Part shown: piece after piece, positions 3,291 to 11,760 of the stretch
How the letters are laid out: every line of letters starts with the position of its first letter
How positions within the stretch are numbered: the stretch's first letter is position 1
Origin: a virus
Taxonomy: Duplodnaviria > Caudoviricetes
DNA length: 54,344 bases
Direction: 5' to 3' (one strand)
IMG/VR virus record: IMGVR_UViG_3300023184_000163
Location: 1-54,344 of that record
The notes under the pieces: generated by a model
Database searches by the model: none
Told to the model about the DNA's origin: nothing
The model's input: only the letters and a program-made list of their open reading frames with translations
Position numbers and translations under genes: made by a program

Positions 3291-3899
3291 ATGTATAACA
3301 GAAAAGAAAAAGAAAGAGAGTTCTTTACTTATCATCTTGATAAGTTTAATAAACTCAAAATAAATGATCCTTTTTTTGTTGTAAAAACTGCATTTTTCCA
3401 AAAAGGAAAGTATGGTAAACAATTACAACTATTTGAAAGTGAATTGAAAAGAGGAGAAGATATTTTTATTGAATTTATTGAAATTGATAGAGATGAAAAC
3501 AATAGAGAAATTAATATTGTTCCAAATAATTCTAACAGAGATTTATTTAAATTTAAATATAATCCTTATTTTTTAGAAGAGTATGAAATAAAAGAAGGTA
3601 ATAACTCTAAAGGAGAACCTTATCAAGCTTTTATAATTCCTTTATCTGAATTAACTGTAATATTACCTGATGGTAATGAAATTACATATGGTTTGTTTGA
3701 AAAAAGAAAAGAACAAGAAATTCAAAAAGAAGAATCTTTACCAAAATTACAAACAACATTAAGTATATTTCCAGATTTTGAAGAAAAGTATGCTCTTAAA
3801 AATGATAAAGAAGTATTTCATTCTAATGAAGAATCAGTTTCTGATATTCTATTAAGAATTGCAACAGATTTTGAAAAATTAGCACAAAAACTAAAGTAA
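3291..3899 (+). CDS. Hypothetical protein in the replication operon
   Basis: 202-aa ORF tightly packed between the helicase and the NTPase; no family recognised. Confidence 0.75.
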   Translation: MYNRKEKEREFFTYHLDKFNKLKINDPFFVVKTAFFQKGKYGKQLQLFESELKRGEDIFIEFIEIDRDENNREINIVPNNSNRDLFKFKYNPYFLEEYEIKEGNNSKGEPYQAFIIPLSELTVILPDGNEITYGLFEKRKEQEIQKEESLPKLQTTLSIFPDFEEKYALKNDKEVFHSNEESVSDILLRIATDFEKLAQKLK

Positions 3900-5386: not shown

Positions 5387-6370
5387 ATGATTTCAACTAA
5401 ACACATAATTTCAGATTTAAGAGATGTACCAAGAGAATGGGTTTTTGAAAATTATTTAAATTTAAAAGAAAAACTCACAGGACAAGATGTTAAAATTTTA
5501 TCTGCATTTAATTCAAAAGATAAAGTACCTTCAATGTGTATTTATACAGATACAATTTCAGGATACTATAAGTTTAAAGATTTTTCATCTGGTATTCAAG
5601 GAGATACAATAGAATTAGTTAAAGCATTATATAATATGCCAACTAGAGCTAATGCAGTAAATAAAATACTTTCTGATTATGAAGACTTTCTTGCTAATAA
5701 TACTTTTTTTGAAAAAAGAGAGTTTAAAATTCATGATAAATTTAAAGTAGTTGACCATGAAATAAGACATTGGAATACAATAGATCAACAATATTGGACA
5801 AGATTTAAAATTGGTTCTAAATTACTTGAGCATTATAATGTATCACCATTGCAATATTTTACAATGGAAAAAAAAGATATAGATGGTACTATAATTTTAT
5901 TTAGATTTGAAAGACCATATACTTATGGATATTTTAGAAATGATGGTTCTTTGTATAAAGTTTATATGCCAAAAAATTCTGATAAAAAATTCATTAAAGT
6001 ACAAAATTATGTACAAGGTCTTGATCAAATAAGTTATGAAAAAGATTATTTAATTATAACTTCTTCTTTAAAAGATCTTATGGTATTTCAAAAACTTAGA
6101 ATAGTTAATGCAGAATCTATAGCACCAGACAGTGAGAATACTATGATTCCAGAGTCTACAATCAACAAACTTAGTAAAAGATATAAATCTATAATTGTAT
6201 TGTTTGATAATGATGAACCTGGTATCAAAGCTGCTGAAAGATATAAACATAAATATAATTTTAGTTATGTTGTTCTTCCTATGGAAAAAGATTTATCTGA
6301 TTCTATTGAAAAACATGGAGTTGATAAAGTTAGAGGAATATTATTACCTTTACTAAAACAAGCATTATGA
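5387..6370 (+). CDS. DnaG-type (Toprim) DNA primase
   Basis: Degenerate N-terminal zinc-ribbon-like region (SAFNSKDKVPSM...KDFSSGIQGD) and Toprim motifs LIITSSLKD, LFDNDEPG, KDLSD. Confidence 0.85.
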   Translation: MISTKHIISDLRDVPREWVFENYLNLKEKLTGQDVKILSAFNSKDKVPSMCIYTDTISGYYKFKDFSSGIQGDTIELVKALYNMPTRANAVNKILSDYEDFLANNTFFEKREFKIHDKFKVVDHEIRHWNTIDQQYWTRFKIGSKLLEHYNVSPLQYFTMEKKDIDGTIILFRFERPYTYGYFRNDGSLYKVYMPKNSDKKFIKVQNYVQGLDQISYEKDYLIITSSLKDLMVFQKLRIVNAESIAPDSENTMIPESTINKLSKRYKSIIVLFDNDEPGIKAAERYKHKYNFSYVVLPMEKDLSDSIEKHGVDKVRGILLPLLKQAL

Positions 6371-6792
6371 GTTGGATTTACCAAGGTAAAAAGTTTACTG
6401 AAACAAATATACCAGAAAATGGTATTGGATTTGTTTATCACATGTCAGTGATATTAAATGGAAATACTTATGCCTATATTGGTAAAAAGAATTTCTTTTC
6501 AAATGTAAAAAAGAAACTTGGTAAAAAAGCTTTAGCATTAGTTACTGATAAAAGGTTAAAGAAATATACTAAAGAACAAAAAGCTAATTTTGAAAATTAC
6601 TACAGTAGTAATCAACAATTAAAAGAAGCTCACAAAGCAGGAGTTACTATTAAAAGAGAGATCTTGTTAATTTGTTATTCTGCTACAGAATTAACTTATC
6701 AAGAAGTAAAGCACCAGTTTAAGTATGAAGTGCTTGAGAAAGAAAATTATTTAAATGCCAATATCCTTGGCAGATTTTACAAAACAAAATAA
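6367..6792 (+). CDS. Free-standing GIY-YIG family endonuclease
   Basis: GFVY...YIGKKNF, YYSS, REIL, E and YLNxNI pattern of short phage GIY-YIG nucleases. Confidence 0.75.
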   Translation: MSWIYQGKKFTETNIPENGIGFVYHMSVILNGNTYAYIGKKNFFSNVKKKLGKKALALVTDKRLKKYTKEQKANFENYYSSNQQLKEAHKAGVTIKREILLICYSATELTYQEVKHQFKYEVLEKENYLNANILGRFYKTK

Positions 6793-7948: not shown

Positions 7949-8353
7949 ATGATTTTAAACAAACAAGAAATTAAAAATATATTAAGTATGTTACTTTCTG
8001 AAGATAAAGAAAATGCTGTAATTGCTTTTTCTTGTCTTTATAACTATGCTAGTAAAAAATATTTAGGTGAATTATTAGTATTATATCAATTTGGTAGAAT
8101 ATCAGCTGAAGAATGGGAAAAAGAATGTAAAAAAGTTTTTAAACTTTTAAAAAATGTTTTAAAACTTGATAGTAAAGATTATAGATTACCTTCTTCTACA
8201 GTATTTTCTGCTTTAACATCTAATAAATGTAGTAAAGAATCAATAGAATTATATTTAGAATTATTTACTAATCAACTTTCTAATAATTTATATAATATGG
8301 GTTACCCTACTGATAAACTTGAAATTAGTGTAAAAATAAAAGACAATGACTAG
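7949..8353 (+). CDS. Hypothetical protein
   Basis: 134-aa ORF overlapping the vWA gene by 8 nt. Confidence 0.7.
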   Translation: MILNKQEIKNILSMLLSEDKENAVIAFSCLYNYASKKYLGELLVLYQFGRISAEEWEKECKKVFKLLKNVLKLDSKDYRLPSSTVFSALTSNKCSKESIELYLELFTNQLSNNLYNMGYPTDKLEISVKIKDND

Positions 8354-9533
8354 AGAAGATACTTTAAGTAAAACAGGAAAAGATTTAATGTTGAAAGAGC
8401 CCTATTATGGGTTCTTTCTCATTAAGCTAAATAAAATTTGGAATAAAAGAATACCAACTGCTGGTGTTTGTAAAAATGGTATTAATTATCAATTAGTAAT
8501 AAATGAAGATTTTTGGACAAATTTATCTGAAGATCATAGATTAGGCTTACTTAAACATGAGCTTTTACATATTGCTTTTGGTCACTTAACTACTGTATTT
8601 AAGTTTAGTGATAGAAGATTAGCAAATATTGCTATGGATATGGAAATAAATCAATATATTAGTGATGACTTACTACCAGTTGGTGGTATTGATATTAATA
8701 ATTATCCTGATTTAAATCTAAATACTAAAGCAGGTTGTAGATATTATTATGATAAGCTTAAAGAAGCTAAGAATGAAAAAGATACAAATGGTACAAGTGG
8801 TGATGAAAAGTATGATGATCTTTGTGATCAAATGGATGCTGGTGATGGTGCTGATCTGCCTGACCATAGTACTTGGGATGAGTTTGAAAATCTTACAGAA
8901 GCTGAACAAAAACTTATTGAGAAACAAATACAGAAAATACTCTCAGATGCAAAAGAAGACACACTTAAGAAGAGAGGTAATGTACCTGGAGAAATAGAAG
9001 GTGTTCTTATACTTGAAGAAGTTGTTGCTGCTAAGTTTGATTGGAAAGGATATATCAGAAGATTTAATGGAATTTCAACTAAAGTTTATACTAAAAAAGT
9101 TAGAAGAAAAGAAAATAAAAGATATGATGCAAATCCTGGTCTTAAAATTAAGATGAAACAGCATATGTTATTGGGTATTGATACTTCTGGTTCAGTAAGT
9201 GATCATGAACTACAAGAGTTTATGAATGAAATACACCATATACATAAATCAGGTGTAGATATTACAGTTATACAATGTGATACTAGAATCAATTCTATTG
9301 AAGCTTACAAAGGTAAATTAGAAATGACTGTATCAGGAAGAGGAGGAACAGAGTTTGATCCTGTCTTAAATTATTATAATGAAAATCAAGGTTTATATAC
9401 AAGTTTAGTATATTTTACTGACGGTGAATGTAATACATCTGTAACACCAAAAGGAAATGTTCTTTGGGTTTTGTCAGAACAATCATATATGAATGAAGAT
9501 CTTCCAGGTAAGGTCATTAAATTAGAACTTTAA
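8346..9533 (+). CDS. Metallopeptidase-like (HExxH) plus vWA domain protein (DUF2201 type)
   Basis: PTAGV, LKHELLH, NIAMDMEINQ and DHSTW in the N-terminal part; MIDAS elements IDTSGS, GRGGTEF and YFTDG in the C-terminal part. Confidence 0.9.
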   Translation: MTREDTLSKTGKDLMLKEPYYGFFLIKLNKIWNKRIPTAGVCKNGINYQLVINEDFWTNLSEDHRLGLLKHELLHIAFGHLTTVFKFSDRRLANIAMDMEINQYISDDLLPVGGIDINNYPDLNLNTKAGCRYYYDKLKEAKNEKDTNGTSGDEKYDDLCDQMDAGDGADLPDHSTWDEFENLTEAEQKLIEKQIQKILSDAKEDTLKKRGNVPGEIEGVLILEEVVAAKFDWKGYIRRFNGISTKVYTKKVRRKENKRYDANPGLKIKMKQHMLLGIDTSGSVSDHELQEFMNEIHHIHKSGVDITVIQCDTRINSIEAYKGKLEMTVSGRGGTEFDPVLNYYNENQGLYTSLVYFTDGECNTSVTPKGNVLWVLSEQSYMNEDLPGKVIKLEL

Positions 9534-9542
9534 AAGAAAATT

Positions 9543-9962
9543 ATGAGTCAAGTACAATTAAATGTTGAAGAATTAAAAGGATTTATTAAGCATATGGTTG
9601 GTAACAACCAACATATTCAAAAGGAAGGTAAGGTTCCTGTAGCTATTAATATTGAAGGAGATGCAGGTCTTGGTAAAACTTCTGCTATTATGCAGTTAGG
9701 TAAAGAACTTGATATGCAAGTAGTAAAACTTAATTTATCTCAGTTAGAAGAATTAGGTGACTTAGTTGGTTTTCCTGTAAAAGAATTTGAAATAACAAAT
9801 GCTGAAGGTAAGACTACCTGGATTAATGAATCTCAGATAAATGCAGCTACTGCAAAAGGTTATAAAGTATCAGGAAAAAGAATGTCTCATGCTGCTCCTG
9901 AGTGGATTCAAGGCAAAGGTGAAGGTGGATTCTTGGTATTAGATGATTATACTCGTGCGGAT
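9543..9962 (+). CDS. MoxR-like AAA+ ATPase, exon 1
   Basis: Walker A GDAGLGKT, GDLVGFP, PEW and Walker B LVLDDYTRAD. The frame stops immediately after Walker B at the intron boundary. Confidence 0.9.
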
Positions 9963-10006
9963 TAACAAAATATGCAGTCTAATAGTGTTAGTGTAAATAA
10001 TTTAAT

Positions 10007-10014
10007 TATCTTTG
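10007..10014 (+). promoter_or_regulatory. Bacteroidota -7 promoter element for the intron endonuclease
   Basis: TATCTTTG (TAnnTTTG) ends 4 nt before the ATG at 10019. Confidence 0.55.
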
Positions 10015-10018
10015 TAAT

Positions 10019-10768
10019 ATGGAAAAATTAAATACACAAACTCTTAAGACAGCATTAAAGAGTATAGGAATCTACAAAATTAAAATTAATGATAAAGAGT
10101 ACATTGGTAGCTCTTGTAATATTGGTCATAGGTTAAAACACCATTTGTGGTCTCTTGAAAATTTAAAACATCATAACAGAACAATGCAAAACTTATATAA
10201 TAAGTATGGTAAAGAAGAAATTTATTTTACTGTTATAGAAGAATGTTCTGATGATATTTTAATAGAAAGAGAAGCTTGCTACATTAGCACACTTAATCCC
10301 TATATAAATCATATACTAGATCCACAAACTCTAGTTAGGGATGATGTATGTAAACAAAGAATGAGTGAAGCTAAGAAAAAATCTTATGCTAATGGTTTAA
10401 AACCTCCTAACCGTAAAGCAGTACATAAGTACTCACTTGATAAAGGTGATTACTTAGAAAGCTTTGAATCTATTACAGCTGCTGCTAGGTCTATTAATGC
10501 TAAAAGCATTAGTGGTATAAGAGATTCTTGTATGAAAAAAGTTTTTTCTGCAGGAGGATTTATATGGTCTTTTACTTATAATATAAAAATATTACATAGA
10601 CCAAAACAATATAAGCTAGAACCAATATTACAATATACTGATGATAATATTTTTATCAAAAAATGGGAGTCTATAACTCAAGCAACTAAAGAACTTAGTG
10701 TCTCTAATATTAGTAGAGCAATAGCTAAAGATCTAACTGCTGGTGGTTATAGGTGGAAAAAAGCATAA
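10019..10768 (+). CDS. Intron-encoded GIY-YIG homing endonuclease with NUMOD-type DNA-binding repeats
   Basis: GIYKIKINDKEYIG...R...E...N catalytic domain, KQRMSEAKK segment, and two NUMOD1-like repeats (FESITAAAR...AGGFIW; WESITQATK...AGGYRW). Confidence 0.93.
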   Translation: MEKLNTQTLKTALKSIGIYKIKINDKEYIGSSCNIGHRLKHHLWSLENLKHHNRTMQNLYNKYGKEEIYFTVIEECSDDILIEREACYISTLNPYINHILDPQTLVRDDVCKQRMSEAKKKSYANGLKPPNRKAVHKYSLDKGDYLESFESITAAARSINAKSISGIRDSCMKKVFSAGGFIWSFTYNIKILHRPKQYKLEPILQYTDDNIFIKKWESITQATKELSVSNISRAIAKDLTAGGYRWKKA

Positions 10769-11010
10769 AGCGGGTGGTCCGCAATAAATTCTGTGAATTC
10801 AGGGAAACTCCAGAGATGGACAATCCTGAGCCAAGCATTACAGGGATGTAATGAAGGTGCAACGACTAGTATATGGAGCCTAGAACAGGCAGTAAAATAC
10901 CAAGAGCGCAGAACACATAGAAATATGTGATGATATAGTCTGACCTGTAGATATAATCTAAAAAAAACTACAGAATCATAGGATAAAGAGCCTATGAGTT
11001 AACAATAATG

Positions 11011-11760
11011 CACCGCTTTATGCAAGCAACAATGGAGATCTTAGATAGACAAGAATATGTTTCTTGGAAACTTCCTAAGAACTGGCATGTAATCTTAACT
11101 ACTAATCCAGACAATGGTGACTATAATGTTACTAGTCTTGATGTAGCTCAGAAAACAAGATTTATCTCATGTGAGCTTAAATATGATGTAAAAGTATGGG
11201 CTAAGTGGGCTGAGACCGCAAATATTGATGGTAGATGTATAAATTTTATGTTAATGCATCCTGAATTAGTTACACAAAAGATTAATCCAAGATCAGTAAC
11301 TACATTCTTTAATGCTATTAGTTCTATTGATAAGTTTGAACAAGAATTACCTTTAATCCAAATGATTGGTGAAGGTTCAGTTGGTCCAGACTTTAGTTCT
11401 ATGTTTACTATGTTTATTAATAATAAATTAGATAAGATTATTTCTCCGGAAGATATCTTAACTAAAGATGAAGCATATGTAATGGGAGCATTAGATGGTG
11501 CTGTAGGTAAAGATGATGATTTTAGAGCAGACTTGTCTAGTATTATTGCTACCAGAGTAATAAATTATTCATTAGTTTATTCTGAGAAAAATACAATTAC
11601 AGATGCATTTACTAATAGACTAATTAAACTTACTACAGATTGTAATGCATTTACTGATGACCTTAGATATTATATGATTAAGGAAATTGTAAATGGAAAT
11701 AAACTTAAGTTTAGTAAGTTGATGATGAACAGTGATGTTGTAAAAATGGCTGTAAAATAA
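11011..11760 (+). CDS. MoxR-like AAA+ ATPase, exon 2
   Basis: HRFMQATME...WKLPKNWHVILTTNP...LDVAQKTRF...NPRS (sensor I, Arg finger, sensor II). Spliced product is 389 aa. The track's ATG at 11008 uses the intron's terminal G. Confidence 0.9.
   Translation, partial: HRFMQATMEILDRQEYVSWKLPKNWHVILTTNPDNGDYNVTSLDVAQKTRFISCELKYDVKVWAKWAETANIDGRCINFMLMHPELVTQKINPRSVTTFFNAISSIDKFEQELPLIQMIGEGSVGPDFSSMFTMFINNKLDKIISPEDILTKDEAYVMGALDGAVGKDDDFRADLSSIIATRVINYSLVYSEKNTITDAFTNRLIKLTTDCNAFTDDLRYYMIKEIVNGNKLKFSKLMMNSDVVKMAVK

Follow-up and report, generated by a model that had tools for sequence, protein, structure and literature searches.

The td intron of phage T4 carries the I-TevI gene in the loop of helix P6 and possesses a P2 helix, which the phage introns of subgroup IA2 also have. 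I-BasI, the enzyme encoded in the intron of the DNA polymerase gene of Bacillus phage Bastille, is of the HNH type, and in the I-PpoI intron the endonuclease gene lies in P1. Part of PMC8395846 describes myxomycete S1389 nuclear rDNA introns with the endonuclease gene as a sense-oriented extension of P1, and part of PMC7902536 a fungal mitochondrial intron with an insertion in the P1 loop. As typical targets of phage introns, section 11 of the review PMC3984707 names polymerases, ribonucleotide reductases and terminases; in crAss-like phages, a passage of Yutin et al. 2021 (PMC7886860) reports group I introns that interrupt core genes, among them 'ATP_43b AAA domain ATPase', and that were identified through their endonuclease domains. 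Here, we describe an element in an uncultivated AT-rich freshwater phage (Duplodnaviria; Caudoviricetes) represented by IMG/VR record IMGVR_UViG_3300023184_000163, of which the window analyzed covers positions 1 to 54,344 (54,344 nucleotides [nt]). We are confident that positions 9963 to 11010, inside a gene for a MoxR/NorQ-like AAA+ ATPase, represent a mobile group I intron of the IA type, in which a GIY-YIG homing endonuclease gene occupies the loop of P1. The features of the intron, its host gene and the gene directly upstream lie on the plus strand.

Exon 1 of the ATPase gene (9543 to 9962, 140 codons), delimited from the list of open reading frames (ORFs) and by alignment with intronless homologues of 389 amino acids (aa), contains the Walker A motif GDAGLGKT and the Walker B motif FLVLDD. 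Its ORF ends with ...LVLDDYTRAD (GFLVLDDYTRAD) and is followed by an in-frame TAA formed by the first three intron bases (9963 to 9965). Exon 2 (11011 to 11760, 249 codons plus stop) opens in frame with CAC at 11011, and removal of the intervening 1,048 nt, the last of which is G11010, fuses ...YTRAD to HRFMQ... in a product of 140 + 249 = 389 aa. A preliminary description of the window, made from its letters alone, had predicted this splice-out; all of its coordinates proved correct when checked against the sequence, and the product was borne out by 389-aa intronless homologues that read through the junction without a break (...DDYTRAD-HRFMQATME..., LDDYTRADHRFMQATMEILDRQ). A protein search with exon 2 returned 4,920 proteins, and nearly all of the best 120 were 389 aa long. 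Intronless alleles, which the same description had proposed to look for, were abundant: among the 80 nearest loci on viral contigs, the gap between the exons was 0 in 69 and exactly 1,048 nt in 11, at the same codon boundary, so that the homologues at 69 of the 80 loci are encoded by one uninterrupted gene and not as two natural polypeptides. The protein of one of these loci (L004) is identical to the predicted spliced product of the window and served as its stand-in in all protein work. The terminal G of the intron (omega-G, 11010), directly after which the 3' splice site is placed, occupies an alignment column that is unchanged in 20 of 20 copies, and both the frame and the junction at this point match the intronless homologues.

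A third ORF (11008 to 11760) begins with M-HRFMQATME, its ATG being made from the last intron bases. Public gene calls deposit the halves of the gene separately, with exon 2 proteins of 246 to 250 aa that start from this intron-end ATG (P0015, P0036 and others). Further exon-2-only proteins, found among the representatives of 50% identity clusters (P0144, P0210, P0212, P0227 and P0243), begin with M-A-(D/Q/S/N/L)-x-(R/K/L/I)-F, i.e., two codons upstream of the junction in the window (R/AD... instead of RAD/H..., with the slash marking the break). Starts of this type may reflect a second insertion site that other lineages have at a distance of 6 nt, or differing start-codon calls. A search for their source loci in viral and metagenome contigs found no close relative (best matches, 61 to 67%); among the 160 loci concerned, 2 carried the known intron, one (L250) carried a variant of it and one (L287) ended at a contig edge.

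The covariance model RF00028 matched the intron over its full length (model positions 1 to 253) at 10725 to 10960 with 82.5 bits (cut-off, 50; E value, 3.4e-21) when 9900 to 11100 was scanned, and a genome search independently returned the same match. The variant copy L250 scored 71.8 bits. A 34-base core pattern was present in 48 IMG/VR contigs, and 20 distinct 3' halves of the intron were aligned. The helices P3 to P9.1 were derived from the RF00028 alignment and the sequence and comprise 65 pairs in 14 helices; across the 20 copies, 98.6% of the 1,300 cells were standard pairs. Compensatory changes on both sides were present in 29 of the 65 pairs, a count reached by none of 500 shuffles, and sliding the partners by one to three columns left 0 to 3 compensatory pairs. 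The claim of a group I intron in the preliminary description, for which a covariance model had been suggested as a check, was thus upheld by the model score as well as by covariation.

Compensatory changes were concentrated in P3, P6a, P7.1, P9 and P9.1. P3 (10789 to 10795 with 10907 to 10913) had three of seven pairs compensatory with all cells paired and encloses P4, P5, P6/P6a and P7.1/P7.2. Six of seven pairs in P6a (10836 to 10842 with 10847 to 10853) and three of four in P7.1 (10869 to 10872 with 10897 to 10900) were compensatory, again with all cells paired, followed by P9.1 (10976 to 10982 with 10991 to 10997; six of seven), P9 (10945 to 10950 with 10968 to 10973; four of six) and P7.2 (10878 to 10880 with 10888 to 10890; one of three). 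Pair counts support P4 (10800 to 10804 with 10824 to 10828), P5 (10809 to 10812 with 10817 to 10820), P6 (10830 to 10831 with 10857 to 10858) and the P8 hairpin with its GAAA loop (10914 to 10929), which is longer in the copies L096 and L106. P4 and P5 were unchanged, as was the guanosine-binding helix P7, which forms a pseudoknot with P3 (GACUA, 10864 to 10868, with UAGUC, 10936 to 10940; identical in 20 of 20 copies and in agreement with the RF00028 consensus). P2 is absent, as only AAUAAA (10783 to 10788) separates the guide described below from P3. The presence of P7.1 and P7.2 between P7 and the 3' strand of P3 assigns the predicted structure to the IA type, by a criterion that is given in part of PMC3984707. 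Since P2 is missing, no subgroup number was assigned.

Both exons have a matching guide, and the two guides lie side by side immediately upstream of the core. The 5' strand of P1, GCGGAU (9957 to 9962), with the 5' splice site after U9962, is the same in all intron-bearing copies that cover this end. Its partner is the internal guide sequence GUCCGC (10777 to 10782), which was located from the sequence, a duplex search and the fold of an ORF-less copy and lies 6 nt upstream of P3. The resulting P1 consists of five Watson-Crick pairs and a U9962-G10777 wobble at the splice site. The P10 guide AAAGCGGGUG (10767 to 10776) pairs at nine positions, leaving a single G bulged, with CACCGCUUU (11011 to 11019), the start of exon 2 and 3' strand of P10; four of the nine pairs are changed on both sides among the copies. 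Guide and exon 2 change together in four host lineages: in addition to the window, exon CGAGAUU meets guide AAUCUCG in L092, GUACGUUU meets AAACGUUAU in L096, and UCACGUUU meets AAACGUUGA in L250. Furthermore, no other stretch of the intron forms a better duplex with the 14-mer at the 5' splice site than the guide region does (-13.0 kcal/mol). In a natural ORF-less copy of 352 nt (L106), the minimum free energy fold forms P1, P3, P4 to P6, P8, P9 and P9.1 (z = -4.2), and the guide is retained in both ORF-less copies (L106 and L121).

Based on the spacing to P3, the covariation of P10, the conservation and duplex rank of the guide and the ORF-less fold, we place the guide and the 5' splice site about 815 nt apart, and therefore the entire GIY-YIG ORF lies in L1. 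As given by the positions of the P1 strands, L1 spans 9963 to 10776 (814 nt); the endonuclease gene lies completely within it, and the P10 guide is located at the 3' end of the loop. This arrangement had been proposed in the preliminary description and is substantiated by the guide 6 nt before P3, the covarying P10 strand beside it and the folding of the ORF-less copy into P1. The overlap of the endonuclease stop codon with the P10 strand, likewise proposed there, amounts to two bases (TAA at 10766 to 10768 versus 10767 to 10776).

The endonuclease gene (10019 to 10768, 249 codons) was identified by PF01541 and by PHROG homing-endonuclease families. The N-terminal GIY-YIG domain scored 25.8 bits against a PF01541 cut-off of 22.6, and NUMOD1-like DNA-binding repeats scored 19.5 bits, below the NUMOD1 cut-off of 22.8. 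The translation shows GIY at residues 17 to 19, YIG at 28 to 30 and the stretches HRLKHH, IEREA and LNPYIN, which we take to be the Arg, Glu and Asn motifs of this enzyme class. The ORF is intact in 47 of 49 copies, with 246 to 256 codons and 27 distinct proteins, and endonucleases of the close lineage are 74 to 96% identical to that of the window. Because it is kept intact despite this divergence, the ORF is under selection. The ORF-less copies (L106 and L121, both at 1386 to 1737) are 352-nt derivatives of the intron in which a deletion of about 700 nt has left only the last ~85 nt of the endonuclease gene; their host ATPase is 47% identical to that of the window in exon 1. At 10007 to 10014, 5 nt upstream of the start codon of the endonuclease, stands TATCTTTG, which is retained in the distant copy L092 and agrees with TAnnTTTG, the Bacteroidota -7 promoter consensus. 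With 81 occurrences of this pattern in the window against 110 expected, we do not claim a promoter at this position.

The distribution of the intron among related phages indicates mobility. In the 12 intron-bearing alleles compared first, the flanks were ACTCGTGCGGAT upstream and CACCGCTTTATG downstream of the insertion site throughout, including GCGGAT joined to CACCGCTTT. This combination occurred in none of the 69 intronless alleles, most of which have GCTGAC joined to CATAGATTT, encoding the same residues. None of the closest relatives of the window (L002 to L011, 97 to 100% protein identity) has the intron. Between the window and L004, the ATPase gene differs at 26 positions, all synonymous, and ten of them are clustered around the insertion site (-9, -7, -4, -1, +3, +4, +6, +9, +18 and +21), compared with 16 differences from the nearest intronless relatives in the remaining about 1,130 bases. 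To judge from these bases, the synonymous cluster from -9 to +21 is a co-conversion tract, as expected of double-strand-break repair. Introns were 88.6 to 96.4% identical to that of the window, versus 78 to 89% for the flanking exons. An exon tree was calculated from 70 distinct rows, 14 of them intron-bearing, excluding the 30 bases adjoining the site in either exon (rows with identical exons [30], distant rows [20], partial rows [5] and rows with one exon only [4] were dropped). On this tree, the intron label needs 12 changes, of which well-supported branches force at least 9, compared with a mean of 13.1 for shuffled labels; recombination could inflate these counts, and they do not separate gains from losses. 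The window is the sole carrier in a clade of 11 with 100% support.

Presence or absence at the exact site combined with the flanking co-conversion points, at the sequence level, to a mobile (homing) intron. The endonuclease would be expected to cut intronless alleles during co-infection, for which the co-conversion tract and the widely retained ORF are indirect evidence, and repair would copy the intron together with a few flanking bases. An explanation that does without homing, in which phages circulating together recombine in the ordinary way and the intron, inherited vertically, is precisely lost again and again, would agree with tree counts that are blind to the direction of change and with the four intronless alleles that have an intron-type 3' flank, as expected after loss or partial conversion. 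We nevertheless regard it as unlikely, as the window is the only carrier in its fully supported clade, the 30-nt tract of intron-type synonymous bases stands in a gene that is otherwise about 98% identical, and the endonuclease ORF has stayed intact in 47 of 49 copies despite 4 to 26% protein divergence in the close lineage. The four alleles mentioned (L029, L030, L032 and L033; junction at 3500/3501) combine the intron-type 3' flank CACCGCTTTATGCAAGCA with the intronless-type 5' flank GCTGAT, which could result from precise loss, partial co-conversion or an ancestral target. Under homing, the metagenomic relatives are an unusually full record of the cycle of such an element, with a recent gain, a scattered distribution over the host-gene tree and two deletions of the endonuclease gene, and the intron has spread into host genes with as little as 43 to 47% identity in exon 1.

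Several observations weigh against a splicing intron with the proposed P1, and we consider them together. A scan of the whole window with Rfam at the gathering threshold gave 0 matches, presumably a filter effect. Spliced RNA was sought in four metatranscriptome runs (of 24 listed), and none was seen. The RNA contigs run across the site, from 9953 to 11020 or from 9958 to 11017, with the intronless relatives' own letters and leave the intron uncovered; because these runs held only intronless relatives, the result gives no verdict on splicing. The duplex score of the guide exceeds that of the next-best site (-11.7 kcal/mol) by a small margin, and shuffled introns contain on average 2.2 sites matching GCGGAU at six of six positions, which makes the P1 match alone not significant. 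P1 shows no compensatory change, since the exon strand GCGGAU is the same in every copy. In five distant copies the guide reads GUCCCCC, leaving exon C(-5) unpaired or bulged, which is the one observation at odds with a simple 6-bp P1. Finally, the best duplex for a stem closing L1 beyond P1 reached -26.1 kcal/mol, and 42 of 300 shuffles were as stable; such a long-range stem was therefore rejected.

According to a second alternative, the ribozyme is a non-splicing relic, the gene either no longer functions or yields polypeptides of 140 and about 250 aa, and the endonuclease acts as a free-standing gene. The lack of spliced RNA in the runs searched and the deposited 246- to 250-aa exon 2 proteins would suit this explanation, but it is very improbable given a core in which 29 of 65 pairs keep pairing by compensatory change and P7, P4 and P5 do not vary. 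Likewise, there is a guide to fit each exon, with covariation between the guides and exon 2, and the exon flanks fit the guides in intron-bearing but not in intronless alleles. Moreover, the interrupted gene differs from intronless relatives by synonymous changes only, and a permanent split five residues after Walker B would fall within the AAA+ core. We give equally little credence to an intron that splices with a nearer guide and holds the ORF in a P2-type extension instead of L1: although P1 itself lacks covariation and a second six-of-six site exists at 10143 (AUUUGU), such sites are common by chance, this one pairs mainly by wobbles and lies inside the ORF, the 6 nt between GUCCGC and P3 leave no space for P2, the P10 guide immediately 5' of GUCCGC covaries with exon 2, the ORF-less copies keep the guide in the GUCCGC region and fold into P1, and by our own reading of the alignment the Bastille intron appears to share the guide-to-P3 spacing, with a short L1.

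For the intron with its endonuclease gene in L1, the predicted catalysis and its timing would be as follows. The guide GUCCGC (10777 to 10782) would pair with the last six bases of exon 1 to form P1, placing the U-G wobble where cleavage is to occur, and a guanosine bound in P7 would attack after U9962. The adjacent guide AAAGCGGGUG would hold exon 2 in P10, and the exons would be ligated after G11010, yielding an mRNA for the 389-aa ATPase. Because the complete endonuclease gene occupies L1 between the two P1 strands, P1 could form only once the 814-nt loop has been transcribed. Ribosomes translating exon 1 would stop at the UAA (9963 to 9965) directly at the splice site; section 11 of PMC3984707 describes stop codons at intron starts as aiding folding, and we assign the UAA this putative role. 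A ribosome terminating at 10766 to 10768 would cover both guides, and for this reason translation of the endonuclease and splicing are probably mutually exclusive on one RNA molecule. A conflict of this kind between endonuclease translation and splicing was reportedly described for the T4 td intron with I-TevI by Gibb and Edgell in 2010. It is conceivable, although we would rather doubt it, that the intron works as a translation-gated splicing switch, in which the guides of translated RNAs are covered and only untranslated transcripts splice. If so, the ATPase would be made only when and where endonuclease translation is off, and the intron would time its host gene instead of being neutral.

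The interrupted gene belongs to a large family of ATPases (2,612 clusters at 50% identity). Its spliced protein stays below the curated Pfam cut-offs (AAA_5, 17.5 versus 22 bits; AAA_3, 16.9 versus 27 bits), and 59 diverse family members matched AAA_5 in 46 and AAA_3 in 26 cases (E values up to 0.01; best, 6.1e-9). A family profile searched against the PDB matched Midasin (1.3e-27) and the MoxR-like structure 2r44 (1.7e-4). An AlphaFold (AF2) model of the spliced protein had a pLDDT of 96.4, and the 12 best-ranked Foldseek matches listed were NorQ and CbbQ chains, with 11 to 15% identity and TM-scores of 0.55 to 0.62 on target length. NorQ and CbbQ are MoxR-class ATPases that work with von Willebrand factor A (VWA) partners. 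Directly upstream of exon 1, the window encodes a VWA-like DUF2201 protein with a putative metallopeptidase domain, DUF2201_N (8346 to 9533; PF09967, 3.6e-16; PF13203, 4.6e-16), which is likely the partner of the ATPase. Sequence profiles and the structure model thus support a MoxR/NorQ-like AAA+ ATPase beside a VWA-like gene, in line with the MoxR-like host gene named in the preliminary description. Compared with the MoxR-class systems NorQ/NorD and CbbQ/CbbO, to which it is linked by its closest structures and the adjoining VWA-like gene, the ATPase has an additional C-terminal helical extension of ~130 residues and its partner a metallopeptidase-like N-domain. In the family, Walker A G42 and K45 and Walker B D134 and D135 are invariant. 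The insertion was said to be at Walker B, which holds approximately: it is near this motif, but the junction falls between D140 and H141, flanked by invariant R138 and nearly invariant Q145. A tblastn search with exon 2 against cultured phages gave no match at 1e-5, and the full-length ATPase found there only genes with 21 to 28% identity, annotated as 'MoxR-like ATPase'.

The IMG/VR record is 54 kb long, is rated 45% complete and has a G+C content of 26.6%. RNA runs that hold relatives are labelled as lake, freshwater and sediment metatranscriptomes. The window encodes a replication module with a DnaB-like helicase, a Sak4-like protein, a primase, a PP-loop protein, the VWA/ATPase pair, an exonuclease and a DNA polymerase. 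DnaB, x, Sak4-like, x and primase follow one another in the same order in Cellulophaga phage phi14:2, a crAss-like phage with a polymerase 35% identical to that of the window; no homologue of the window ATPase was found in that phage. In RefSeq, the DNA polymerase coding sequence of phi14:2 (L133, 9636 to 12081) is a join of two segments that are separated by removed 'hypothetical protein' features, which suggests an intervening element in this crAss-like phage, too. Elsewhere in the window, an ORF of 141 aa (6367 to 6789) matched a PHROG 'NAD synthetase' family (1.9e-21) and gave a weak match to a homing-endonuclease PHROG (6.1e-7). Six successive giant ORFs of 2,458, 3,537, 2,518, 1,096, 1,132 and 1,022 codons occupy two thirds of the window (18354 to 53753, minus strand); at an E value of 1e-5, their only PHROG match was to a family without a known function.

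The intron missed by the gathering-threshold scan of the whole window scores 32 bits over the cut-off when 1.2 kb is searched in E-value mode. Whole-contig Rfam pipelines of this kind would leave it unannotated, and intron-aware annotation of this abundant group of freshwater phages would repair a conserved gene.

With regard to the host gene, we found no paper joining 'group I intron', bacteriophage and MoxR, and a targeted literature search gave no phage group I intron with a homing endonuclease in an AAA ATPase by title or abstract. The preliminary description had called a MoxR host gene unusual; the claim of novelty is softened by the AAA ATPase introns of crAss-like phages reported in part of PMC7886860 and by the P1 endonuclease genes of nuclear rDNA introns (PMC8395846). 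Like the phage studied here, those phages are uncultivated, are probably phages of Bacteroidota and carry introns in genes of the replication module, an AAA ATPase gene among them; as far as the passage goes, ATP_43b and the window ATPase share the designation AAA ATPase. The intron adds a MoxR-like AAA+ ATPase to the host genes of phage group I introns. Its ORF, too, is placed uncommonly among phage introns. With an endonuclease gene in L1, P1 has to form across 815 nt; in the literature we found no phage endonuclease gene in P1 or L1 and met this arrangement only in nuclear and mitochondrial introns. The nuclear rDNA introns with a P1 ORF differ in that they reside in eukaryotic rRNA genes, encode His-Cys box enzymes and lack coupled translation of the host transcript.

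The closest ribozyme cores are those of phage introns, namely, in the DNA polymerase gene of Bacillus phage Bastille, the polymerase gene of Pseudomonas phage PaoP5 and the terminase gene of Vibrio phage qdvp001, with 76 to 82% blastn identity over P3 to P7. The Bastille intron has J3/4, P4, P6, J6/7 and P7 in common with the one described here, also interrupts a phage protein gene at a conserved motif and, by our own reading of the alignment, appears to lack P2 and to have its guide a few bases before P3. In contrast, its core follows the 5' exon directly and the I-BasI gene (L130, 2171 to 2737) lies downstream of P7, whereas the intron in the window interrupts another host gene and carries its GIY-YIG gene in L1, upstream of the entire core. 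The T4 td intron, as generally described, is likewise of the IA type, encodes a GIY-YIG enzyme (I-TevI) with a C-terminal DNA-binding module and has a stop codon that limits ribosome entry. Compared with td, the intron of the MoxR-like ATPase gene has its endonuclease gene in L1, lacks P2 and has a stop codon that overlaps the P10 guide.

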